From: a virus
Strand: one strand, 5' to 3'
UHGV virus genome: UHGV-0068637
DNA: 18,257 bases
Shown: one piece after another, positions 3,001 through 18,257 of the stretch
How positions within the stretch are numbered: position 1 is the stretch's first letter
Layout of the letters: the number at the start of each line of letters is the position of its first letter
Translations under genes and position numbers: made by a program
Notes under the pieces: model-generated
The model's database searches: none
What the model was told of the DNA's origin: nothing
The model's input: only the letters and a program-made list of their open reading frames with translations

Positions 3001-3184
3001 CTGCTGGCGTCACTGACAGTTCAGTGCCGCTTTTAATTTCCGTGATGGTAAAGATCTGCACAGGATTGCCAACAGCAATGAGCGTGCAACCTACACGAAT
3101 AAGGGAAAGCGGCGCGGAGAAGTTTGTGCCCGTGCCTTTAACAGTGTTGCCATTGATGGCAATTGTTCCAGTTGTGTAAATCAT
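38..3184 (-). CDS. Side tail fibre protein with C-terminal intramolecular chaperone (peptidase S74-like) domain
   Basis: 1048-aa ORF, ATG at 3182-3184 with GGAG upstream. The Ala/Lys/Thr-rich 'AAKTSETNAKASETAAKTSETKAKTSE' region resembles lambda Stf / T4 fibre collar repeats. The C-terminal ~150 aa carries the 'TSDQSLKDNIKVI...GYTYTFKDD...GVIAQEV...LPEA...SVDY' signature typical of self-cleaving chaperone domains (endosialidase / T5 pb1 type), followed by a heptad coiled coil (ENASLKASVAVMEEENANLKANV). Confidence 0.8.
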   Translation of the reverse strand: MIYTTGTIAINGNTVKGTGTNFSAPLSLIRVGCTLIAVGNPVQIFTITEIKSGTELSVTPAANPAIPAGTKFSILLSDSISVDGLAQDVAETLRYYQSKETEIASAVEWWNEFGGDGQMEQLLTNIRAETAKSTANAQKTESDKNAAAASKTAAANSATAAKTSETNAKASETAAKTSETKAKTSENRAQEYLNQIVRSNNALVQCKWPINTFDYARYVKIAKMTDPGASDCHLTLMITNACNYGKTYGNIDFIEISARNYTTAGGITSANITKFLGVRRLGSAGLDAQNKMRYGIVPGDGYFEVWGYQRAFIKDARVAVLAQTGMTELYIPEGYVEQQTAPEGYIESPAIRIYDQENKPTKADLGLQDALLKGNYGVGGSGITWSDTTGYMTDQDLLKALKAQGGCFWRSGKPKGSTATFHSHGSGVFSRCGDTWSAINIDYGTGNVRIFSGNDRSLEDGTFQINTLYGTKYKPSKADVGLGNVTNDAQVKKGGDTMTGDLTILKGTPSIYLRSKSGTAHLWFQNEDQSERGVIWAPTNSEEGGEVRIRANTTNGTATGDFVVRHDGSIQANSAKILYKVTSRTAEFTNDNTETTENTLKISGKQHTPLLLTRTGYSENLSIGFKVDSVVQKYLGIDGSGDLYFGNNPDHKTNSKVITQAVLDSGVTVGGQTTFSALATFSAGMYGPIYPQPIENQEIDLNNVVIKASDKGSVKYYQCASAGGGNTIANKPSGVGGNFLLRVESIRKISDTDYTNIQTLVGTDTKQIYVRYCENGNWTAWSQIVVSGRNQDVSVNTLTTVSDVTAKGDVILKNSDSGPRLLLRNSDTSAQSWSVRVWGESGRESVFEVGNSKQYMFYAQEDAAGNRKFDFNGDLTCKTLYQTSDQSLKDNIKVIGDATGSIRKMNGYTYTFKDDGLPYAGVIAQEVMDALPEAIAFTTLYGKELQGPTTDGNILREEMKCLSVDYAAVTGLLVQVARETDDRVTELEEENASLKASVAVMEEENANLKANVAAMNEVNASLKADVTAMDERIAKLEALISQLTGSEE

Positions 3185-3361: not shown

Positions 3362-3610
3362 ATGAAAAACGTGTTCAAAGTGGTTTTGTTCGCCACGGCT
3401 GTTGCTCTTACTGGTTGCGCTGTTGACAAGGAGGCTGCATTGCATAACCTGCCGAATAGCGGAGTGATTCCACAAGATGTCGTCTATGATGGCAGCGGTC
3501 ATCTTGTCTATGACACTGAAAAACTGCCGTATACTGGTCAATGGTGTCATGAACTTGATCACAATATGCGCCGCATCGGTAGCCCTTCTAACTGTGTAGC
3601 TAACTACTAA
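3362..3610 (+). CDS. Small secreted lipoprotein, Cor-like superinfection-exclusion candidate
   Basis: 82-aa ORF with a signal peptide and lipobox (MKNVFKVVLFATAVALTG|C), a good RBS, and an intrinsic terminator immediately downstream. It is opposite-strand to, and sandwiched between, the J-like gene and the tail fibre, the position where cor-type lipoprotein morons sit in phi80/N15/T1-like phages. The function is inferred from context only. Confidence 0.65.
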   Translation: MKNVFKVVLFATAVALTGCAVDKEAALHNLPNSGVIPQDVVYDGSGHLVYDTEKLPYTGQWCHELDHNMRRIGSPSNCVANY

Positions 3611-3613
3611 AAG

Positions 3614-3644
3614 AAAACCCCGCGCGAAGCGGGGTTGTTTTTTA
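3614..3644. terminator. Bidirectional rho-independent terminator (lipoprotein gene / J gene convergent)
   Basis: Hairpin CCCCGC-GCGAA-GCGGGG followed by TTGTTTTTT on the plus strand, with an A-run on the other side giving a T-tract on the minus strand. Lies between the convergent stops at 3610 (+) and 3642 (-). Confidence 0.75.
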
Positions 3645-6600
3645 TATCCATGTTCCTGAACTTCTTGTTATAAGTATTAAACCTGGTTTTCTTATTGCTG
3701 CATTAGATGTATTGGTAAAGTTTTCCGTCACCTCTACTGTAATTGTTGGGTATGTGAGGCCAGATACACAGTGCACCGCGACAGTTGACATTGCTGGGGT
3801 TGATGCTGGCCTTTCTATATTAATTGTTTTTTGGTGTCCGCTTATATTTATAGTTACATTGATGCGAGAAGATTCACTATATGTATAGTATGACAAATCA
3901 TACGGAATCATAACGTAAACTGTTTTTGATAAACTTGATGAACTTGAATCAAGATAAGTTTTCGAAACGCGCCTGCTGCCATTTCCCCTCATTGACGGAA
4001 ATACATCCTCGTTTATCACTGACATACTTGCTACGTCACCAACAAAACTTGTAGCTTCAACTGCTCCAGTAAATTTACCGCCAGTTGCGTAAACAGTACC
4101 GTTAAACACACCAGCATAAGCGTATACCGTACCCCTTACGGTTACCTGGTTAAATACTGCGTCACCGGCTTTATCTATCGCCCATCCTGTACCGTTTTCC
4201 CAGCTGTAATTAACTGACTGTATTCGATCAGCTATTTTGGCGGAGTTGATAGTTCCGTCCTTAATAAACGCTTCTCTTACATACATTGCGCCATTGGTGA
4301 CATAGAAAGGCGTTATATATGTGCCGTTTGCTTCCGTCATCAACACGAAGCGGTCAACAAGGAAGATACACTGCGACTGGAAGTTAGTACCATCACCAGT
4401 GAGGCCAAGCGACATACCTGTCGCGTACGTCTTGCCGTAGTTGTCGGTTGCCAGCTTGATAGAGTACGACGCATCAACATTGCCTTTGAAGTCGGTCAAT
4501 GCTTTGGATGTCGTTTCTATTGCCGTTTTATTCCCGTTAACGGTCACTGTTAGCTGATCGATTTTCGTTGATAACGCCTCGTCAGCCGTAGCCATCGCCT
4601 GCGACCATTCAGTGATACTTGCGTCTACCAGTTCGAAGGACGCTGAGATCTGGCTGAATTTTTCAGCGTTTGATTCCTCATGCGTAGCTAGTGCCGTTGA
4701 TACCTCAGATACTTTCGAGTTGATTTCACCGGTAAGCGATGCGCTAAGGCCGCTTATTGCGTCTGCGCGTGCTTTTGTTTCGTCGGCGATAGCCTTGTCC
4801 ATCCTGGTAATGTTGCTCGTTACCTTGCTGTCAAGCGTTGAGATTGATGCATTCACACCGCTGATTGCTTCGCCGCGTGCACTGGTTTCGTCCGCAATGG
4901 CTTTATCGAGGCGGTTAATGCTTGCTTCCGTTTTCTTATCAAGATCTGTGATAGATGCGTTCACACCACTAATGGCTTCCGCTGTTGCCTTTTTCTCTTC
5001 CGCCATAACCTTGTCAATGCGGTCGATTTTCGCATTGGCTTCCCTGATCCCTTTCTTGTATTTGGCTGAAAGGGCAACATGCGTGTTGGTCTGAGCGATT
5101 GAGTTATTGATAAGTGCAATCGAGGTATTCTGCATACTTGCTTTGGTCTGGTTGATTTCATCGCTGTTTTTCTCAACGTTGTTTTCAACCGCACCAAGTT
5201 CGGCGCTGATACCGGATATTGCCTGCGCACGGGCGCTTGACTCGTCGGCAATGGCCTGATCCAGGCGCTTGACGCTGGCGTTTGTGTTGTTCTCAAGCGT
5301 TGTTAAGTCTGCTTTGACCTCTGTTATTGCGTCACTTCTTGCCTTCGTTTCGTCTGATATTGCTTTATCAAGGCGGGAAACGCTGGCGTCTGTTTTCTTG
5401 TCAAGGGTGTCGATCGATGCCTTCACGCCACTGATGGCCTGTGCGCGTGCGCTGGCCTCGTCAGCGATTGCCTGGTCGAGTCTGTTCACCTCTGATTCAG
5501 TGTTGCCTTCAAGCGTGCTGATGCTTGCATTAACGCTGCTGATAGCGTCAGTGCGTGCCTTCGTTTCGTCTGCAATCGCTTTATCAAGGCGATTAACGTT
5601 ACTTGTTACCTTGCCGTCAAGTGTGGAGATTGATGCCTTCACACCATTGATGGCTTCGGTTCTCGCGCTCGTTTCGTCGGCAATAGCCTTATCAAGGCGG
5701 CTTATGCTTGAATCGGTTTTCTTATCAAGTGCTGATACTGAGGCGTTCACCCCATTGATAGCTTCTGAGCGTGCGCTTGTTTCGTCTGCAATAGCTTGAT
5801 CCAGACGTTTAACGCTGGCGTCTGTTTTCTTGTCAAGTGCTGAAATGCTTGCGTTAACGTCGCTGACAGCCTGGGTTCGTGCGCTCGATTCATCGGCGAT
5901 TGCCTGGTCCAGACGTTTAACGCTGGCGTCAGTTTTCTTGTCAAGATTGTCTATTGAGGCGTTCACACCGTTAATAGCTTCGGCGCGTGCGCTGGCCTCG
6001 TCAGCCACTGCACGTTCCACGCTAGAAATCTGACCTTTAAGGTTGGAATCCATCGTGTTCATTTCTGCCGTGATGGTTTCCAGTGATTCCGCTGTCGCTT
6101 TTTTCTCTTCAGCGATAACGTTGTCAATACGGTCAATTTCCGCTTTCGTTTCCGTCCTGCCTTTCTTATACTGGGCGGTAAGGGTTACGCGCGTGTTTGT
6201 CTGTGCAAGCGAGTTGTTGATAAGCGCCAATGAAGCGTTTTGCAGGCTTGCTTTTGCCTGTGCCAGTTCGCTGTCAACTTTTTCGCTTGACACTTCTAAT
6301 AAGTCGATTCTGGACTCATGCTGACCAATATCATCGGCGTTCTCTTTAACTTTTTTGTAGAGATCTTCCGTTTCTTTTTTAAGCGTATCGGTGTCAGCTT
6401 TTATTGTTCCTGTTTCCGTGATCAGATTGTCAGTGTCAGTCCTTAAATCTTCAGTTATGTTGTTCAGGTTGTCGGTTTCGGTCCTTAAATCTTCAGTTAC
6501 GCTGGTAAGGTTGTCAGTTGTAGTTTTGAGGCTGTCAGTAGCAGTTTTCAGTTCTTCCGTGACACCATCAATGACATCGGCGCGGTCGCCAAGATCTTTG

Positions 6601-9083
6601 ATGTCACTAATCATATCTTTGAACTGCTCAGACTCCATGACGTCCTTCATCACGTAGTCGCTGATTTCGTCGAAGTTTTCAGTCGGTTTACCTGATGCCT
6701 CAACGAAGTCTGACACACCAAAGGCATTGCGCGTGCGCACATAGACGTAATAGGTGCGGCCCGTGTTCATGCCGCCAAACGTCCACTGATAACCACGTCC
6801 GGTGTATTGTGCCTTAGTGGTCACTGATGCCGGATCTGTGATTTGATTTTCACCAGCGAAATAGAACTCATAACTAGTGTCAGTGGTGAGCGTTGTTCTG
6901 CTAATCGGGTAAACTGTGGCCTGAAATACACCAGGAACCCAGTTGACACCTATCGGGGCCGCTGGCGCACCAATAACCAGGTCCACAATGCTTTCCGCAC
7001 CCTTCATGCCCGTGTCGTTTCTGCCACGGATGCCTAACGAATAGGTTCCCGCATCAATGCCATAAAAATCATGGCTGTAATTAGTGGTTTCGTAGTATTT
7101 AACCACCGCTCCCGCTGTATTGTATACGCGGATCTCAAAGGTAAGACGATGAGTTGTTGTCATCGTTTCCCATGTTGCGCGACATTGAACCGTTTCGGAT
7201 CCAACGTTCATCACTTTCAGGTTTTCAATGTTAGGCACGCGGAAGTGATTGAGCGTGTCGTTGTTGACTTCAAAGACTGCACCTTCATCAACTACAGCCT
7301 GTTTGTGAGGATCGTGCTGTGCCGCCTCTATGGTGTACACGCTGTTGTTTTCAGTTTCCGCAACGCTGACGATTCGACATAACACGGGTTTAGCTGCGTC
7401 TGTTGACACGGCGAACACAGTACCGTTACGAATCCATGCAGGGGCGGATGCAAGGGTAATTTGGTTCACGTTAACACCAGTGATCTGATGTTTTTTAAAC
7501 TTGCCATCACTGTCAAGCAGGCTGATGGTATCACCAGGGGCGATATATTCAGAGTCAACATTATCTACAGTGATAACCCTGCCACTGTTTGCCACGATGC
7601 GACCGCCCAAACGAGCGCCTGCGCGGTTATTGTCGAGTATCTCGATAATATCACCAGGGGTGAAGTGAATCGCGTCACGGGCCATTTTAAACGTGAATTT
7701 TGAGGGTTCGCGTTTTGCTGTTTCTATCAGCCATTTGCCAGCGCGGTAAGCCTGCCCGCGTGACGTGCAACCAAAAGCCTCCAACGTGGTTTCGTTGTAA
7801 CCATCGCGGGCGATCAGTTCATCATCTGCTACGTATTCTTTTGATTGTTCCCAACCGTTTTCCGGGTCAGTCCATGACACAATCACAGCGTTGTAAGATT
7901 CCGCGCGGGCGATACTTGAACGAGTAAATGCGCCATCAACGACGTTTGCATTCGTGATGGTGGCAATTGGATCTTGCGGTGCATCAATCATCACCGTAAG
8001 GCGCTGCCCGTCCCATAACGCGATACCACGGAACATGCCTGCAATGTTGTCCAGCAAGTCGCGGGCGCTCATTTGCTCAGTGATGTAAGCGTTAAGCGTC
8101 ATGCGTGGTTCAAGGCCGCCGTAACCGTCGTTTACCAACTGGTCGCAGTATTGAGAAAGCACATATAATGCGCCATCATCAACGTCAATGTAACCGGCGT
8201 GGCGGGTAAGCCCGAAGCGTTCATTTTTCACCAGATACCGGAAAAGCCATGCAGGGTTGTTGGTGTATGCCTTTTTGAAGCCACCAAGCCATAAACCTGA
8301 GTATGTGCGTGTTTCCGGGTCGTAGTTATCAGGCACGTCAACAATCAGGCCGCGCATGTGATAGGTGCGTGTCGGCGTGTCGGTATACTGATCGTGGTCA
8401 ATTACCGCGCCTGCTACAGCGGTGTGAGGATAAGACAAGTTATCGTCTATTATCTCGCTGTAACTGCTCCACCTGGTGTCATTGCGAAGTAGATCGCTTT
8501 TACTGTCTGGCGTTACGCGACGAACGCGAATATCAAACGGTTTTTCATCCGGCGCTTGGATGATGTGCGCTTCCATATACTCGCCGCTTTGTTTACCAGG
8601 GCCAATGGTAATATCTTTGACTAGTGACCACGTTGTTGACGATGATGGCTTAACATCAACCATCAACACAACAGATGTATTGTATTGATTGCCCTTGTCA
8701 TCTGACTGAACCAGAGAATCAACGCCAAGATTCAGCCTTACGCGGTTAACGTTTGGATCTGAAACGGTCCTGATTATTGGCGTATCGTGAGTCACTTTTG
8801 CGTTAACAATAACGGTTGATTCAATGGCGTTGAAGCCGTTGATTGGTGACTGGTCAGCCGTACCATTACGCCACGCCACGCTAACGCCAGGGACCGATGT
8901 GCCGCCGTTGGCGTCAGTGATTGGGCTGTCATTAAGCATTACGCTGTTTAATGGCGCTTTCTGGTTTACAGGGCCGTAGATTGGGCCTTCGCTGAGAATG
9001 TCCAAAACACGATAAAACTGTTTATGAAACAGGTTATCGTTTAATAATGTTGGTGTTTTGGCTTTGCCGCCGCCGCTACTCAT
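3642..9083 (-). CDS. J: Host specificity / central tail fibre protein (lambda J family) with large coiled-coil repeat insertion
   Basis: 1813-aa ORF with AGGAGA RBS. The N-terminal ~800 aa is collinear with lambda J ('ILSEGPIYGPV', 'NPAWLFRYLV...RFGL', 'LSQYCDQLV.DG.GG.EPRMT.NAY', 'EAFGCTSRGQAYRAGKWLI'), followed by FN3-like segments. The C-terminal ~300 aa is a J-like receptor-binding region. About 650 aa of repeat-rich alpha-helical sequence sits in between. Confidence 0.9.
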   Translation of the reverse strand: MSSGGGKAKTPTLLNDNLFHKQFYRVLDILSEGPIYGPVNQKAPLNSVMLNDSPITDANGGTSVPGVSVAWRNGTADQSPINGFNAIESTVIVNAKVTHDTPIIRTVSDPNVNRVRLNLGVDSLVQSDDKGNQYNTSVVLMVDVKPSSSTTWSLVKDITIGPGKQSGEYMEAHIIQAPDEKPFDIRVRRVTPDSKSDLLRNDTRWSSYSEIIDDNLSYPHTAVAGAVIDHDQYTDTPTRTYHMRGLIVDVPDNYDPETRTYSGLWLGGFKKAYTNNPAWLFRYLVKNERFGLTRHAGYIDVDDGALYVLSQYCDQLVNDGYGGLEPRMTLNAYITEQMSARDLLDNIAGMFRGIALWDGQRLTVMIDAPQDPIATITNANVVDGAFTRSSIARAESYNAVIVSWTDPENGWEQSKEYVADDELIARDGYNETTLEAFGCTSRGQAYRAGKWLIETAKREPSKFTFKMARDAIHFTPGDIIEILDNNRAGARLGGRIVANSGRVITVDNVDSEYIAPGDTISLLDSDGKFKKHQITGVNVNQITLASAPAWIRNGTVFAVSTDAAKPVLCRIVSVAETENNSVYTIEAAQHDPHKQAVVDEGAVFEVNNDTLNHFRVPNIENLKVMNVGSETVQCRATWETMTTTHRLTFEIRVYNTAGAVVKYYETTNYSHDFYGIDAGTYSLGIRGRNDTGMKGAESIVDLVIGAPAAPIGVNWVPGVFQATVYPISRTTLTTDTSYEFYFAGENQITDPASVTTKAQYTGRGYQWTFGGMNTGRTYYVYVRTRNAFGVSDFVEASGKPTENFDEISDYVMKDVMESEQFKDMISDIKDLGDRADVIDGVTEELKTATDSLKTTTDNLTSVTEDLRTETDNLNNITEDLRTDTDNLITETGTIKADTDTLKKETEDLYKKVKENADDIGQHESRIDLLEVSSEKVDSELAQAKASLQNASLALINNSLAQTNTRVTLTAQYKKGRTETKAEIDRIDNVIAEEKKATAESLETITAEMNTMDSNLKGQISSVERAVADEASARAEAINGVNASIDNLDKKTDASVKRLDQAIADESSARTQAVSDVNASISALDKKTDASVKRLDQAIADETSARSEAINGVNASVSALDKKTDSSISRLDKAIADETSARTEAINGVKASISTLDGKVTSNVNRLDKAIADETKARTDAISSVNASISTLEGNTESEVNRLDQAIADEASARAQAISGVKASIDTLDKKTDASVSRLDKAISDETKARSDAITEVKADLTTLENNTNASVKRLDQAIADESSARAQAISGISAELGAVENNVEKNSDEINQTKASMQNTSIALINNSIAQTNTHVALSAKYKKGIREANAKIDRIDKVMAEEKKATAEAISGVNASITDLDKKTEASINRLDKAIADETSARGEAISGVNASISTLDSKVTSNITRMDKAIADETKARADAISGLSASLTGEINSKVSEVSTALATHEESNAEKFSQISASFELVDASITEWSQAMATADEALSTKIDQLTVTVNGNKTAIETTSKALTDFKGNVDASYSIKLATDNYGKTYATGMSLGLTGDGTNFQSQCIFLVDRFVLMTEANGTYITPFYVTNGAMYVREAFIKDGTINSAKIADRIQSVNYSWENGTGWAIDKAGDAVFNQVTVRGTVYAYAGVFNGTVYATGGKFTGAVEATSFVGDVASMSVINEDVFPSMRGNGSRRVSKTYLDSSSSSLSKTVYVMIPYDLSYYTYSESSRINVTINISGHQKTINIERPASTPAMSTVAVHCVSGLTYPTITVEVTENFTNTSNAAIRKPGLILITRSSGTWI
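4730..6040 (-). repeat. In-frame 108-bp tandem repeat array (about 10 copies, 36-aa unit) inside the J-like gene
   Basis: The motif 'tcaag...gcgcgtgcgctggcctcgtcagc' recurs with exact 540-bp (5 x 108) spacing, e.g. 5401 vs 5941 and 5451 vs 5991. The protein unit is 'DKKTDASVKRLDQAIADESSARTQAVSDVNASISAL' and variants. The array is split into two blocks (about 2.5 and about 7.5 copies) by a duplicated ~250-bp spacer segment. Confidence 0.85.
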
Positions 9084-13884: not shown

Positions 13885-13918
13885 AACCCCGGCATTGTAC
13901 CGGGGTTTTGTTTATTTG
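13885..13918. terminator. Bidirectional rho-independent terminator (cassette B / H gene convergent)
   Basis: Hairpin AACCCCGG-CATTGTA-CCGGGGTT followed by TTTTGTTTATTT. On the minus strand a T-rich tract follows the stem. Directly abuts the H stop at 13912-13914. Confidence 0.75.
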
Positions 13919-16251
13919 CGGCGAGGTTGCAACATTCCGCCAGGTCGTTGCGATTCCCTTGCCATCATTTTCATTGCTACGCGTTCCATTGTCTGTTCAA
14001 GCCTGCGACCGTCTTCGTCGCTAAATCCGTTTGTGGTCTGTACGGTGATGTTAACAGGCATATTGATGCCGCCACCATTGAAGAGATCGCGGCCAGGAAT
14101 AACCCTGCCATTTTCCCCAGGAATCATATACTGACGCCCGTTGCTCGTCTGGAATAACTCAGGAATCCCGTGTTCCCCTACGCGATACAGACTTCCACCA
14201 TTAACAGAACCACCATTATAACGTCCGCCGCCAAAAATTGACGTTGCCAGCGACATGATCGCAGAAAGTGCCGCAGCACCAGCCGCCGCCCAGCTACCAC
14301 CAGTTGACGCAGCCGTTGCCGCAGCCGCCGGGGCCGCCGCCGCAGCAATCTGACCTTGCGCCGCCACCGCGCCAGCCGTTGTACTTGCCTGGGTAGCCTT
14401 GCTTTGCGTTTCCATCATCAACTGATCTGCTATCCAGTTGGCGGCAATTTCTGATAGTTTGTTGCCAACGGTGTTAAGTATGCTACTTCCCAGGTTAGCA
14501 AAAACCTCGCTTAGTGATTGAGTACCGTTCAACAGGCCGGTAAGCGCATTACCCATGCCACCTTTTAGGCCACTGACACAAGCGCCGATCAGGCCGTTTG
14601 TGTCGCTCTGTGCCTGCCATTGTTCCCATTTCAGATCTCGGATCTGTTGCTCGTATTCCAATTGCGCCTGTCTCTGTTGCGCCTCTGTAGCGCCCAGGTC
14701 CAATAGCATTTGTTTTCTTACAGCCCATTCATTTTGCGCCTGCTTGATTGGGTCAATTTCTCCCTTAAGCTGGTCCATCGGGCTAACTATGTGGTCCCAT
14801 TTGTCGCGTAGCTCATCAACAGGGATCTGAGCTAATTCGTCTTTCAGTTCCTTGCCTATTCCTTTTTGCGCGGCCTTGTACTCAAGGAGGGTTATTTTGC
14901 CCTGGGCGAATGCAGCATCAATGGCCTTGCCGTTCTCCAGCGCTTTACGCATGGCGGCGGCGTCCTTGTTGTACTGGTCGGACACTTTTATACCTTCATC
15001 ACCAAGCCGATCAGCTTCGGATTTCTTTTGTTTTTTAGGTTTTTTCGGCTTACCAACTGGCTGATCGAATCCTGTGATCTTGCCATCGTCAGCCTCACCC
15101 TGTTTCTCCATGAACTCATCATATGCGGCGGTTGCGTTTTTAATGTCGTTTGCAAACGTCATTACTTTGCCAACGGTAGGGCCAAATTTCTTCTCGTTGT
15201 TGCTGTTTAGCTCTTCTTTGCGTTTGTCTACGATCTCCTTCATCCATTTGTAGCCATCCATTAGCGCCTTGATTGGCGTCACCATCCTGATGATTTCTTC
15301 CGCCACCTCGCCAGCTTTAACAGCAACATCGTCAAATATGTCGATGAACTCGCTACCAGCGGTTTTCAGTGTATTGAAACAGGTTGCGGCGAATTTTGCG
15401 CCTTTACCCAATCCCTCAACGCCACCAGTGATTAAGTCTATTGCTGTAACAACGCCGTCAGATATGCCGAAAAGATTATCAAGCTCTTCGACAACGCCCA
15501 TCATCTCAACTTTAAGCTCGTTGAAGGCTATGCCTGTTGTGCGCGGCAATTGTGCGAACTTCTCGTTTGTTTCCTGCGTGGAGGCCTGGATCGCGTTGAG
15601 CATCCTTTCAGCCGTGATCTTACCGTCCAGCATTTCAGCGCGGAACTGACCCATAGATAACCCCATTTGGCGGGCCATTTCCTGTACGATTGTTGGGGTA
15701 TTGTCGCGTATTGAGTTAAATTCTTCCGCCTGCAACACGCCAGCATCAATAGCCTGGCGGAACTGGCGCATGGAGTTAGATAACTGTTCCGCAGACACGC
15801 CGCCCAGACTACCAAGTTTTTGTAGCGTGCTAACCAGGTTGAGCACCTGGCCTTCCGTAGCGGATGTATTTTTTAGCGATATAGCAAGCCCTTGCCACAG
15901 GTCGCCAGTATCCTTGAGGCTTTGGCCTGTTTCTTTTGATATATCTTTCAGTCTGTTGAAAACACGTTCCGTGGCCTCCGCTTCACCTGTGAGCAGTTTG
16001 ATTTTTACGCGAAGCATTTTTGCTTGCTCCGCCATGTCAATAAACTGGCGCACAGCCTCCGCAGCAAGTAATAGATGGATAACCCTGGACAGTGCTTTGA
16101 TTGAAGTCTTAAGCGTGTTTACCTGGCGGTCAGCGCGTTTTGCGCCACGCTCGATGCTGTCAAATGCCTGGTCTGCCTGTCGTTGAGCAACGAGAAGTTG
16201 ACCAGTTTTTGCATCAACTTCGTAATAGATTGTACCTAAACTGGTTGCCAT
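13912..16251 (-). CDS. H: Tail length tape-measure protein (H-like)
   Basis: 779-aa ORF with GAGGT RBS. The N-terminal two-thirds is alpha-helical and rich in charged residues. There is a Gly/Ala-rich hydrophobic stretch near the C-terminus (AAQGQIAAAAAPAAAATAAS...SIFGGG) and a terminal 'GGSLYRVGEHGIPELF' region like lambda H. It sits directly upstream of M. Confidence 0.85.
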   Translation of the reverse strand: MATSLGTIYYEVDAKTGQLLVAQRQADQAFDSIERGAKRADRQVNTLKTSIKALSRVIHLLLAAEAVRQFIDMAEQAKMLRVKIKLLTGEAEATERVFNRLKDISKETGQSLKDTGDLWQGLAISLKNTSATEGQVLNLVSTLQKLGSLGGVSAEQLSNSMRQFRQAIDAGVLQAEEFNSIRDNTPTIVQEMARQMGLSMGQFRAEMLDGKITAERMLNAIQASTQETNEKFAQLPRTTGIAFNELKVEMMGVVEELDNLFGISDGVVTAIDLITGGVEGLGKGAKFAATCFNTLKTAGSEFIDIFDDVAVKAGEVAEEIIRMVTPIKALMDGYKWMKEIVDKRKEELNSNNEKKFGPTVGKVMTFANDIKNATAAYDEFMEKQGEADDGKITGFDQPVGKPKKPKKQKKSEADRLGDEGIKVSDQYNKDAAAMRKALENGKAIDAAFAQGKITLLEYKAAQKGIGKELKDELAQIPVDELRDKWDHIVSPMDQLKGEIDPIKQAQNEWAVRKQMLLDLGATEAQQRQAQLEYEQQIRDLKWEQWQAQSDTNGLIGACVSGLKGGMGNALTGLLNGTQSLSEVFANLGSSILNTVGNKLSEIAANWIADQLMMETQSKATQASTTAGAVAAQGQIAAAAAPAAAATAASTGGSWAAAGAAALSAIMSLATSIFGGGRYNGGSVNGGSLYRVGEHGIPELFQTSNGRQYMIPGENGRVIPGRDLFNGGGINMPVNITVQTTNGFSDEDGRRLEQTMERVAMKMMARESQRPGGMLQPRRK

Positions 16252-16289
16252 GATTTAACCTCATGAAAGTGTGATCTAGATCTCTATTC

Positions 16290-16331
16290 TATACAAAATG
16301 GCTTCACTTCAACGTATACATTTTGTATAAA
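16290..16331 (+). promoter_or_regulatory. Candidate promoter/operator for cassette C with conserved motif and 11-bp inverted repeat
   Basis: TATACAAAATG (16290-16300) and CATTTTGTATA (16319-16329) form an inverted repeat. ACAAAATGGCTTCAC at 16293-16307. -35-like TTCACT (16303-16308), 17-bp spacer, -10-like TATAAA (16326-16331). The palindrome GATCTAGATC lies just upstream (16273-16282). Confidence 0.35.
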
Positions 16332-16407
16332 GAAGTCAAAGGAAAGGGATTGAGCGAATGGATTCAGAAGGCCGGATGAACCGGAGGAAGCAAAAGAGGA
16401 TAAGAAA

Positions 16408-16494
16408 ATGAAAAACTACTACCGACCCAACGAGCATGAGCGTTATGCCGACTTCATCGAAGAAATGCTGAAAGCACTTAAAAACAAGAAATAA
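16408..16494 (+). CDS. Possible 28-aa peptide (cassette C, ORF1)
   Basis: MKNYYRPNEHERYADFIEEMLKALKNKK. AGAGGA RBS. A 17-aa upstream mini-ORF (16358-16411) overlaps its start. Confidence 0.35.
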   Translation: MKNYYRPNEHERYADFIEEMLKALKNKK

Positions 16495-16507
16495 ACGGGT
16501 TGGGTAA

Positions 16508-16615
16508 ATGGACACAATCAAAACGTTTATAGATGTATATATTACAGCATGGTTAGCATTTAATGTGATGGCTGTGCTAGTGCTGGCAATGACAACCGAA
16601 GATAAACGTAATTAA
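16508..16615 (+). CDS. Possible 35-aa membrane peptide (cassette C, ORF2)
   Basis: MDTIKTFIDVYITAWLAFNVMAVLVLAMTTEDKRN, with one hydrophobic helix. Its stop overlaps the next ATG (TAATG). Confidence 0.35.
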   Translation: MDTIKTFIDVYITAWLAFNVMAVLVLAMTTEDKRN

Positions 16616-16929
16616 TGGGGGTTATCATGGAACTGGTAATTGCATTCATCGGCTTTATCGCAACTATGGTTGTAGCTCAGAAAAAACATCTGAATATGCT
16701 ATTGGCATTCTTTGGTGCGCTGATTTTCTGGCCTGGGGTATTGATTTACGCACTGTGCGTTAACAAAAAGATGTTTAAACACTACGTCGATGCATTGACT
16801 TTCGTTAACATGGAGTACCCAAACGCAACTGACGTACAGAAAGCACAGGTTGCAACTTACCTTTACGATAACGTGTACGATATTCACGACCTGGATGAGG
16901 CAAGATGCAGATTTGCAGCATACAAATAA
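16615..16929 (+). CDS. Hypothetical small inner-membrane protein (cassette C, ORF3)
   Basis: About 100-104 aa; alternative ATG at 16627 preceded by GGGGG. Two predicted TM helices (LVIAFIGFIATMVVA, LLAFFGALIFWPGVLIYALCV) then a soluble tail. A terminator follows directly. Confidence 0.55.
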   Translation: MGVIMELVIAFIGFIATMVVAQKKHLNMLLAFFGALIFWPGVLIYALCVNKKMFKHYVDALTFVNMEYPNATDVQKAQVATYLYDNVYDIHDLDEARCRFAAYK

Positions 16930-16934
16930 AAATA

Positions 16935-16960
16935 AAGGCCCGGTTAATTCCGGGCTTTTT
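16935..16960. terminator. Bidirectional rho-independent terminator (cassette C / chaperone gene convergent)
   Basis: Hairpin GGCCCGG-TTAATT-CCGGGCC... followed by TTTTT on the plus strand and by TTTATTTTTATTT on the minus strand. The stop codon of the minus-strand gene lies in the loop. Confidence 0.7.
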
Positions 16961-17624
16961 CTTGCTCGCGTTTTTTCATCAATTCCAGCACCCTTTTAGC
17001 GGCCTCCATTTGCTCATCATAATCACGTTTATTTATATGAACGTTTGGCTTACGTTTCTCGTTTCTTTCGTCTGGTGGCGTTTTAGCGCGTACAGCGGCC
17101 CTGTATCCGGTCATTGTCATGCCCCATGCTTCAGATTCAGACAATCCCAGGTGAGCAACGGCAGAATAAACATACTCAAGGATGTCGAATGTCTGCTTAT
17201 AGTCGCCTTCCTGCTCCTCTCCAGCGTCTTCATCTGGTCCGTCACCAATTAAGCCGTGATACATGCAGTGTTGCGCCAGCGTGATAACGTCGCTGGTGGG
17301 CATCAACCCAGGTTTCAGTCTCAACTTACCCGAAGGAGTAAAGCTGCATTCGCCCAATAACTGGCCTATTTCGCATTCTGAGCAACATTTCAGGACGTGG
17401 ATGGACGTTTGCACTAACTCACCATAACAACGCGCCATAATGCGATTGCGGAGGTCTGGATCCGTTGGCAAACGCTGTGGATATTTACCACCGTGCACAG
17501 TTGCGAAGTATTCGACCAATTCCCTGTCACTGCCGATCTTAGCCATTGCAGCAAAGCAGGGATTGAACACATACCGCCTGCCATCAACCACAGCCGCAAA
17601 TTGTCCTGTTCGAACATGAATCAT
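16944..17624 (-). CDS. Putative tail assembly chaperone (position of lambda G/T), Cys-containing
   Basis: 227 aa from the ATG at 17622-17624 with AAGGTGA RBS (the ORF track extends to a TTG at 17663 through a terminator hairpin). It lies between the putative tube protein and the tape measure. The acidic C-terminal half (DGPDEDAGEEQEGDY) fits a chaperone, but no G/GT frameshift was identified. Function is assigned by position only. Confidence 0.4.
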   Translation of the reverse strand: MIHVRTGQFAAVVDGRRYVFNPCFAAMAKIGSDRELVEYFATVHGGKYPQRLPTDPDLRNRIMARCYGELVQTSIHVLKCCSECEIGQLLGECSFTPSGKLRLKPGLMPTSDVITLAQHCMYHGLIGDGPDEDAGEEQEGDYKQTFDILEYVYSAVAHLGLSESEAWGMTMTGYRAAVRAKTPPDERNEKRKPNVHINKRDYDEQMEAAKRVLELMKKREQEKARN

Positions 17625-17633
17625 AGCTGTCAC

Positions 17634-17661
17634 CTTAAAAATAAAGGGGCCATGTGGCCCC
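17634..17661 (-). terminator. Rho-independent terminator downstream of the putative major tail protein gene
   Basis: Perfect hairpin GGGGCC-ATGT-GGCCCC (17646-17661 on the plus strand) followed on the minus strand by TTTATTTTTAAGG. Sits between the stop at 17679 and the next minus-strand start at 17624. Confidence 0.65.
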
Positions 17662-17678
17662 AATGTCAGTGTTTGTTG

Positions 17679-18155
17679 TTACGCCGCCGGAACGTCAGCT
17701 ACTGTAACCTTGCCAGCGCTTTCGCATTCAATGGACCAGGTGGACACATCGTCATGCGGATCTTCTTCTTTAAAGGAAGTGCAAAGAAACGGGCCTTCAG
17801 TCACATCAAGCGGAGAAACAATTTTTAACCATACGATTGGCTGAGAACCAGTTACCTCACCCGGGTTAATAACGTGGCGTTTCAACTCTTTCTGATTGTG
17901 AAGCGCTTCTGTGCGGGATACGCCGTCACCTGAGAAGGAAACGGACTTGTAAGTTACCAGTGATTCTTTGGTGTAGTCTGCTGATTTGTCAGCGGTGGCG
18001 TCTGCGGTTTCCCATTCTACGGAAAGAGATTTACCACGCATCATGCCTAACGCTTTATATGCTTCGTCATTAGGTTTCGCATTAGGGCAAGCGATAGCGT
18101 AAAATACGGCAACGTCGCGGCCTAAGAACGAACCTTTATCACAAGTCTGAGACAT
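17679..18155 (-). CDS. Putative major tail (tube) protein
   Basis: 158-aa ORF with a strong RBS (AAGAGGT). It is immediately upstream of the chaperone and tape-measure genes and is followed by its own terminator, typical for a highly expressed tube subunit. The size fits small siphovirus tube proteins. Assignment is by context and composition, not a recognised motif. Confidence 0.5.
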   Translation of the reverse strand: MSQTCDKGSFLGRDVAVFYAIACPNAKPNDEAYKALGMMRGKSLSVEWETADATADKSADYTKESLVTYKSVSFSGDGVSRTEALHNQKELKRHVINPGEVTGSQPIVWLKIVSPLDVTEGPFLCTSFKEEDPHDDVSTWSIECESAGKVTVADVPAA

Positions 18156-18257
18156 GTTTAGTTACCTCTTATCTAGATATGATGGTTTGAAAAGCTACGG
18201 TAAAAATAAAGCGCCCTTCTCTTGTCTGCATTGCAGGAATAGCGCCAACTGGCTTCA

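Follow-up and report, generated by a model that had tools for sequence, protein, structure and literature searches.

The stretch of DNA analysed here (UHGV virus genome UHGV-0068637; 18,257 nucleotides (nt), the window in what follows) is an 18.3-kb tail-gene region of a temperate Escherichia coli siphophage of the mEp021/mEpimmI group, and the gene with which we are concerned is the member of the DUF6246 family that lies in it between the tail tube and tape measure genes and encodes a putative tail assembly chaperone. Phages of this group have been described in PMC11893012, the text of which never mentions a chaperone or a frameshift; nucleotides 13900 to 18257 of the window are 86-92% identical to mEp554, mEp044, mEp010, mEp021 and MagusPhagus. 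The order on the minus strand is tail tube gene, DUF6246 gene and tape measure gene, all three in the same orientation. The upstream neighbour (17679..18155, minus strand), encoding a tail tube (major tail) protein of 158 amino acids (aa), matches Pfam Phage_tail_2 (E 6e-9) and phrog_853, 'major tail protein' (E 2e-47), and its counterpart is labelled tail tube or major tail protein in the mEp554 and mEp021 records. The downstream neighbour (13912..16251, minus strand) encodes a tape measure protein of 779 aa, with matches to Pfam TMP_3 (E 2e-49) and to phrog_1538, 'tail length tape measure protein' (E 8e-138).

The DUF6246 gene occupies 16944..17624 on the minus strand, runs in a single frame to a TAA stop codon at 16944-16946 and encodes 226 aa. 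The original prediction of one continuous minus-strand open reading frame (ORF) was thus right as to the frame and slightly off as to the length, given there as 227 aa. Taken mechanically, the ORF extends over 16944..17663 (minus strand; 239 aa from a TTG start), and coordinate 17663 lies within the terminator hairpin downstream of the tube gene; the biological start is ATG 17624, which yields a product of 226 aa plus stop (227 codons). This ATG was chosen because a Shine-Dalgarno-like AAGGTG (17631..17636, minus strand; read from the sequence) stands upstream of it at a spacing of 6 nt, and because the close homologues all measure 225-227 aa and begin with MIHVRTGQ. The protein matches Pfam DUF6246 (PF19759) with E 7e-58 and a score of 195.9 bits (cut-off 27), its residues 20-203 covering positions 1-184 of the 185 in the model, and matches phrog_791 (PHROG 791) over its full length (E 3e-66). 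Between the window and mEp554, substitutions in the gene are distributed 8/8/39 over codon positions 1/2/3, a pattern that leaves the predicted coding status of 16944-17624 in no doubt, and both the GC content and the strand of the gene are those of the tail genes. The accompanying statement that this was the only minus-strand ORF of the interval fails when taken literally, mechanical ORFs being present at 16336-16521 and 16699-16887, and holds in the sense that no other ORF there carries coding evidence: 16699-16887 shows a non-coding pattern (15 aa changes from 17 nt changes), and 16336-16521, with just 16 nt and 7 aa changes, is too thin for a coding verdict.

The G/GT frameshift of siphoviruses is among the most conserved recoding events in tailed phages and serves annotators as a landmark; Xu, Hendrix and Duda are said to have described the conserved frameshift in tail chaperone genes in 2004, in a work that PMC4276943 cites. 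No obvious frameshift of this kind had been noticed in the window, and the search bore this out: not one in-register X_XXY_YYZ heptamer was found anywhere in the window DUF6246 gene, and the only two XXXYYYZ strings in it are both out of register. When twelve DUF6246 genes were scanned (that of the window and 11 others), no slip site emerged at a conserved position; seven of them (the window gene and six of the 11) contained no in-register slippery heptamer at all, and in the remaining five the heptamers stood at unrelated positions. A single-product chaperone is therefore most likely.

A profile search run exhaustively returned 372 cluster representatives at E<=1e-3; per-member analyses were made on the best 150 of the 372, nearly all of which are 190-240 aa long and match from end to end. 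By tblastn, relatives of DUF6246 were found in 328 phage records, among them ES18, SPN3UB, Jersey-like Salmonella phages, the Pseudomonas phages phi297 and JBD44, Klebsiella and Vibrio siphophages, and Mannheimia phage 535AP2; in the 60 of these records that were listed, the annotation reads hypothetical, 'DUF6246' or 'putative tail protein'. The gene lay between the tube and tape measure genes, with or without inserted morons, in all 13 loci inspected, namely the window and 12 comparison phages (mEp021, mEp554, mEp044, mEp515, MagusPhagus, ES18, JBD44, INT55, SCNJ1-C, pYD38-A, Mannheimia 535AP2 and L010, a contig from ENA). Moron insertions flank it, for instance, as genes 18-20 in ES18 and as a HicAB pair in Mannheimia phage 535AP2. 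On the ENA contig (ERZ1332972 tig00000001, an 866-kb long-read contig), the DUF6246 and tape measure genes appear broken into short ORFs at 3587-4231 and 6556-6831. Uncorrected indels, and not a naturally split G/T pair, are the most likely cause, and the split DUF6246 gene was set aside as an assembly artefact, many genes of this contig, the tape measure gene included, being broken as well.

The AlphaFold2 (AF2) model of the protein, built on the 150-sequence alignment, reached a predicted local distance difference test score (pLDDT) of 93 and a predicted template modelling score (pTM) of 0.81, and shows an alpha/beta part reaching residue ~127, a fall in confidence over residues 131-140, helices over 148-181, a second fall at 191-200 and a long C-terminal helix from 199 to 225. 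We accordingly distinguish (i) an N-terminal alpha/beta domain (residues 1-128; 17241..17624, minus strand; pLDDT 94-98) with the position and size of a G-type module, (ii) an acidic linker of variable length (residues 129-146; 17187..17240, minus strand), where pLDDT falls to 69 and which is disordered in a model made from a shallow multiple sequence alignment, the segment from G127 to F146 being 9-28 residues long across the family, (iii) a T-type domain (residues 147-207; 17004..17186, minus strand; VYSAVAHLGLSESEAWGMTMTGYRAAVRAKTPP ... YDEQM), identified by hhalign against -1-frame T domains and by TAC_6 matches within the family, and (iv) a basic, Lys/Arg-rich C-terminal helix (residues 208-226; 16947..17003, minus strand). 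Each of the 150 family members was scanned against Pfam, with matches counted at E<=1, and besides DUF6246 itself two families recurred: Phage_TAC_6 in 30/150 and Phage_TAC_11 'GTA-gp10' in 7/150. The TAC_6 matches (best E 2.1e-5) fall, in 9 of the 9 mapped, on residues ~150-185 (profile positions 5-40), and those to TAC_11 (best E 2.3e-4) on residues 7-30, aligned with profile positions 2-25; the most recurrent NCBIfam match, a weak one, was to TIGR02216, the 'rcc01693 family'. As judged from these profiles, the relation of DUF6246 to TAC_6 is one at the superfamily level and not one of Pfam membership. Searched by sequence, with the single protein or the 150-sequence profile as query, the PDB yielded nothing beyond chance-level matches to designed helical proteins, no structural neighbour of the DUF6246 protein was found in the PDB, PHROGs scans of the separated N- and C-terminal halves returned only families of unknown function, and a search of a 5.8-billion-protein set for TAC_6 proteins with the C-domain alignment retrieved only short DUF6246 fragments.

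A Foldseek search against viral models (BFVD) gave, as the best match outside the family, gp16 of Rhodobacter phage RcapNL (E 0.01), a protein of 190 aa encoded between the tube and tape measure genes of that phage and matching TAC_11 at E 1.2e-8. In the large protein set, the nearest relatives of gp16 reach a length of only 117-157 aa, enough to cover just its first ~60%. We fetched 36 loci of such gp16 relatives from genomes and IMG/VR and analysed 35 of them. Their order is tube gene, a G gene of ~115-150 aa, a -1-frame T ORF of ~75 aa and tape measure gene, and 34 of the 35 contain an in-register A_AAA_AAA, A_AAA_AAG or G_GGA_AAG at codons 102-119, mostly within an A7-A9 run. These slip sites serve as the positive control for the heptamer scan, and the family also defines what we call T: the product of the -1 ORF is a conserved T domain (…RYDARARIRNICGVMGRLPAEVRAMTPEETDLLIEGWNAAQ…APTDAEYEELVRRYG), for which three of seven reconstructed peptides matched Pfam TAC_6 (best E 3.3e-5, one above the gathering threshold). 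Virtual GT fusions were then built for 30 of the loci, and their alignment was compared with the DUF6246 profile by hhalign. The two align with a probability of 91.8% (E 7.2e-7) over 94 columns, residues 114-207 of DUF6246 against 91-191 of GT, a span that includes the final helix of G, the slip site and all of T as far as its terminal 'P-T-x-E-E-Y-D-x-x-M' motif, and in which the KKK slip site of the fusions falls opposite the acidic linker DGPDEDAGEEQEG of the window protein. The C-terminal part compared with T alone gave a probability of 94.7%, E 5.6e-8 and a score of 41.4, against E 0.3-0.5 for reversed sequences and scores of 9.3 +/- 2.2 (maximum 15.4) for 60 column permutations.

In RcapNL gp16 itself (NC_020489.1, 10354-10926), a TAC_11 G domain and a T domain are fused in frame, and the junction reads GGT_AAA_AAA_ACT with the A7 run kept. 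This could be a natural loss of the frameshift, by a recent change of 1 or 2 nt, or a miscounted homopolymer; subject to the same caveat about the A7 run, gp16 would be a second, independent example of an in-frame G-T fusion. Phage 9g was rejected as a canonical comparator, its G and T belonging to TAC_4 and TAC_18 and not to TAC_11 and TAC_6.

Overall, this mEp021-like siphophage probably has its tail assembly chaperone in the 226-aa DUF6246 protein, a single polypeptide whose synthesis would involve no recoding. The original prediction had left the choice between a cryptic frameshift partner and a non-canonical arrangement; as far as the sequences can tell, the second is the more apt, the partner most likely being not cryptic at all but fused in the same frame. 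A profile match to the G/GT families, a slippery site and a -1 extension had been named together as the marks of a canonical arrangement, and of these only a profile match was found, and for the T domain alone. The gene would thus contain the long 'GT' architecture, with an ordinary linker where the related genes carry their slippery site. Read from its N terminus, the protein would present a domain (1-128) in place of the G module, then the acidic linker (129-146), the T-type domain (147-207) and the basic C-terminal helix. Its canonical relatives would reach T only when the ribosome slips by -1 near the end of G; with an in-frame linker at the junction, every copy would be a 'GT'-type molecule, and a G-only short form would presumably be absent. 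On the model of lambda gpG/gpGT, one would expect the N-terminal part to hold the tape measure protein and the T-type domain to bring in tube subunits, the chaperone then leaving the tail once it is finished. More tentatively, and with rather less confidence than we place in the chaperone assignment, a large siphophage clade (at least 328 sequenced phages, with hosts including Escherichia, Salmonella, Klebsiella, Pseudomonas, Vibrio and Mannheimia among others) may have permanently swapped the G/GT frameshift for an in-frame fusion, with an N-terminal fold that matches no solved chaperone.

Between the chaperone and tape measure genes lies a low-GC moron cassette on the plus strand (16408..16929) with three small ORFs (28, 35 and 104 aa). 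That a plus-strand cassette occupies this interval, as had been proposed, was confirmed: its GC content is 0.37-0.42 against ~0.50 in the flanks and its GC skew is inverted, as expected of an inserted plus-strand cassette, and the ORF at 16615-16929 (plus strand; 104 aa, with two hydrophobic segments) has substitution phases of 8/6/16, a coding pattern. The content of the cassette varies among close relatives, mEp021 and MagusPhagus carrying another ORF of ~137 aa and mEp515 different ORFs. A promoter-less gap (16252-16407) adjoins it. In the mEp554 record (PP180005.1; PHANOTATE), minus-strand ORFs were called inside the cassette at 5447-5632 and 5723-5998, corresponding to 16336-16521 and ~16700-16930 of the window; for the larger call, phases of 9/4/4 and 15 aa changes from 17 nt changes show, at the level of substitutions, that coding is on the plus strand, in agreement with the mEp044 annotation.

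Two terminator-like hairpins were also recorded. The one between the tube and chaperone genes (17646..17661, minus strand; GGGGCCACATGGCCCC then TTTATTTTT; from a consensus scan) matches a site annotated as a terminator in mEp021, mEp554 and mEp044. The other (16938..16955, both strands) is a two-way hairpin, GCCCGG-AATTAA-CCGGGC, with T-runs on both strands and the stop codon of the chaperone gene inside its loop. Its minus-strand site comes from the scan, and its role as a plus-strand terminator, followed by TTTTTCTT, was read from the sequence, the plus-strand report of the scan being the neighbouring hairpin 16951-16968; the mEp021 record gives its counterpart as a plus-strand terminator, the mEp554 and mEp044 records as a minus-strand one. 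Both are GC-rich with T-runs and bracket the chaperone gene on its own strand, the downstream one also facing the plus-strand cassette, and transcription of the tape measure gene would have to pass both of them as well as the convergent cassette. The mEpimmI phages are described as Nus-dependent in PMC11893012.

The segment KCCSECEIGQLLGEC, brought up in the original prediction for its CCxxC string, is indeed present at residues 79-93 (nt 17346-17390, minus strand), and the emphasis laid on it found no support, the CCxxC string being lineage-specific. Among the 150 representatives only C81 is conserved (142/150), against 26/150 for C80, 1/150 for C84 and 3/150 for C93, and close E. coli relatives have KACADS or KSCAES in place of the string. 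A zinc-finger reading, and with it a conserved CCxxC metal-binding motif, was rejected, the liganding cysteines not being conserved across the family. Two histidines are conserved, H158 in 132/150 and H123 in 118/150 representatives.

Several points weigh against a single-frame chaperone. The window protein has no listed match to Phage_TAC_6 (PF09550; gathering threshold 23.4 bits), and its match to Phage_TAC_11 (PF11836) stays below the threshold of 27.8 bits, at 12.8 bits (E 0.13; positions 2-25 of 96). In the hhalign comparison of the N-terminal part with G alone, no significant match was obtained (E 0.056); what ties this domain to the G chaperones is its position, its size and a motif of ~25 residues. 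The pTM of 0.81 may mean that the two parts are packed together as a single globule, and not as independent modules. In the literature searched, no function is given for DUF6246, one paper naming the family in passing, and nothing useful was found under DUF6246, PF09550 or rcc01693. That the protein is absent from virions is only hinted at, the mEp021 record suggesting as much by giving mEp021_62 no 'virion structural protein' label. The skewed G:GT ratio needed in lambda would have no counterpart if the long form alone were made. Finally, the GenBank entry of ES18 has a remark by its depositors on gene 17, the homologue: 'possible +1 frameshift at 3' end of gene'.

This last note bears on the reading in which the gene is a canonical G/GT with a cryptic 3' frameshift, either -1 on ATG_AAA_AAA (codons 216-218) or +1 as proposed for ES18, that would add a C-terminal extension. 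The 3' end is the sole place in the window gene for such an extension: beyond the stop, the -1 frame (open from codon 210) continues for 81 codons and the +1 frame (open from codon 217) for 46, and an A6 run stands at codon 217 in the window, mEp021, mEp554 and mEp044. The run is missing, however, from MagusPhagus and mEp515, and the 81-codon -1 extension crosses the terminator hairpin and lies antisense to the plus-strand ORF 16615-16929, with non-coding substitution phases of 9/4/4 and 15 of 17 nt changes altering an amino acid. Nor is it conserved: in mEp021, with a protein 98.7% identical, the cassette is a different one and the extension consists of 31 unrelated aa, and the past-stop extensions amount to 9 aa in mEp515, to only 7 (-1) and 27 (+1) in ES18 and to 3 and 1 in the Mannheimia phage, no resemblance being seen among the alternative-frame extensions of these five (window, mEp021, mEp515, ES18 and Mannheimia phage). 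In JBD44, INT55, SCNJ1-C and pYD38-A, the DUF6246 stop overlaps the ATG of the tape measure gene, and a separate second ORF is therefore impossible there. With a T-type domain already in frame, we consider a cryptic 3' frameshift extremely unlikely. In the same four phages (ATGA overlap at 4588 in JBD44 and at 3178 in INT55, SCNJ1-C and pYD38-A), the -1 frame of the last 5-21 DUF6246 codons is open into the tape measure frame, with an A6 run at this place in INT55; were a -1 slip to occur at this point, chaperone and tape measure protein would be joined in one product, the overlap probably being just translational coupling, and a fusion of this kind is inapplicable to the window, where the two genes are 690 nt apart.

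The zero frame might, alternatively, encode a long GT-like form from which a short G-only form is also obtained, by cleavage in the linker, by ribosome drop-off or by a shift to a nearby stop. The linker varies in length across the family (9-28 residues) and is the segment modelled with the lowest confidence, a shift after codons 128-142 would end the product at 131-142 aa in the -1 frame, which is the size of a G protein, in-register A_AAA_AAT heptamers occur at codons 129 and 150 in Mannheimia phage 535AP2, and the A7 run has been kept at the in-frame junction of RcapNL gp16. In the window gene and in most family members, though, the linker holds neither a slippery sequence nor a homopolymer, and an AT-rich genome together with a Lys-rich linker can account for the Mannheimia sites; a second, short product seems unlikely to us. 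It is very improbable, on the other hand, that DUF6246 is no chaperone but a minor virion component or an accessory, moron-type protein of phages that build their tails without a G/GT-type chaperone. Such a role would sit well with a family of unassigned function that has no structural neighbour in the PDB, with an N-terminal domain not demonstrably G-like and with the use of the junctions on both sides of the gene as moron insertion sites. It is opposed by the retention of position and orientation across distant hosts (Escherichia, Pseudomonas, Vibrio and Mannheimia), unlike the nearby morons, by a GC content and strand that are those of the tail genes, by the coupling of its translation to that of the tape measure gene through the ATGA overlap in several phages, and by the homology of one of its domains to T domains, a type confined, DUF6246 apart, to tail chaperones.

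If the protein is a single-frame chaperone, a probable function becomes available for genes now labelled 'hypothetical', 'DUF6246' or 'putative tail protein', those of ES18 and the Jersey-like Salmonella phages included, and the in-frame T domain would account for the frameshift not found in these genomes. Should the long form alone be made, the skewed G:GT ratio, usually given as the reason for the strong conservation of the frameshift, would be dispensable, and DUF6246 would offer a natural 'GT-only' system in which to study what the ratio is for; the sharper alternative would be a short isoform still produced at the disordered linker by an unrecognised mechanism. The locus is also a trap for gene callers and frameshift predictors, since its -1 frame stays open beyond the stop and minus-strand ORFs have been called within the moron cassette in one GenBank record.

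Among known systems, lambda requires both G and GT, in a skewed ratio. The DUF6246 locus resembles that of lambda gpG/gpGT in the order tube, chaperone, tape measure and in a long form composed of an N-terminal and a T module, a likeness of organisation; lambda slips at G_GGA_AAG and makes G in large excess over GT, whereas the window gene has no slip site and would yield the long form only. The G/GT pairs of the GTA-gp10 type (a TAC_11 G and a -1-frame T related to TAC_6/TIGR02216), exemplified here by the relatives of RcapNL gp16 at loci L014, L016 and L017-L051, stand closer: they occupy the same locus, with a tube gene of the Phage_tail_2 type on one side and the tape measure gene on the other, their last helix, junction and T domain are homologous to the C-terminal ~95 residues of DUF6246, the long forms are of similar length (~190 and 226 aa, respectively), and the N-terminal motif of ~25 residues is alike, the rest of the DUF6246 N-terminal domain being not detectably related. 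In contrast to DUF6246, in which T is in frame and no slip site is present, these systems place T in the -1 frame behind a conserved A_AAA_AAA/G at codon ~113, and two products are expected from them. RcapNL gp16 shares with DUF6246 a single-frame G and T ORF at the same genomic position, although it stands alone among frameshifting relatives and retains an A7 run, while the DUF6246 fusion is family-wide and has an ordinary linker. A lone annotated chaperone gene with no frameshift is on record for other phages (PMC10885494), and in RcZahn a clear frameshift signal is said to be lacking (PMC8601537); DUF6246 has the absence of a frameshift in common with them, those reports being silent on any replacement of the T domain, which here would be a T-type domain fused in frame. 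The absence of a frameshift is thus not new in itself, and what is new is a widespread family that carries a frameshift-type T domain in frame.

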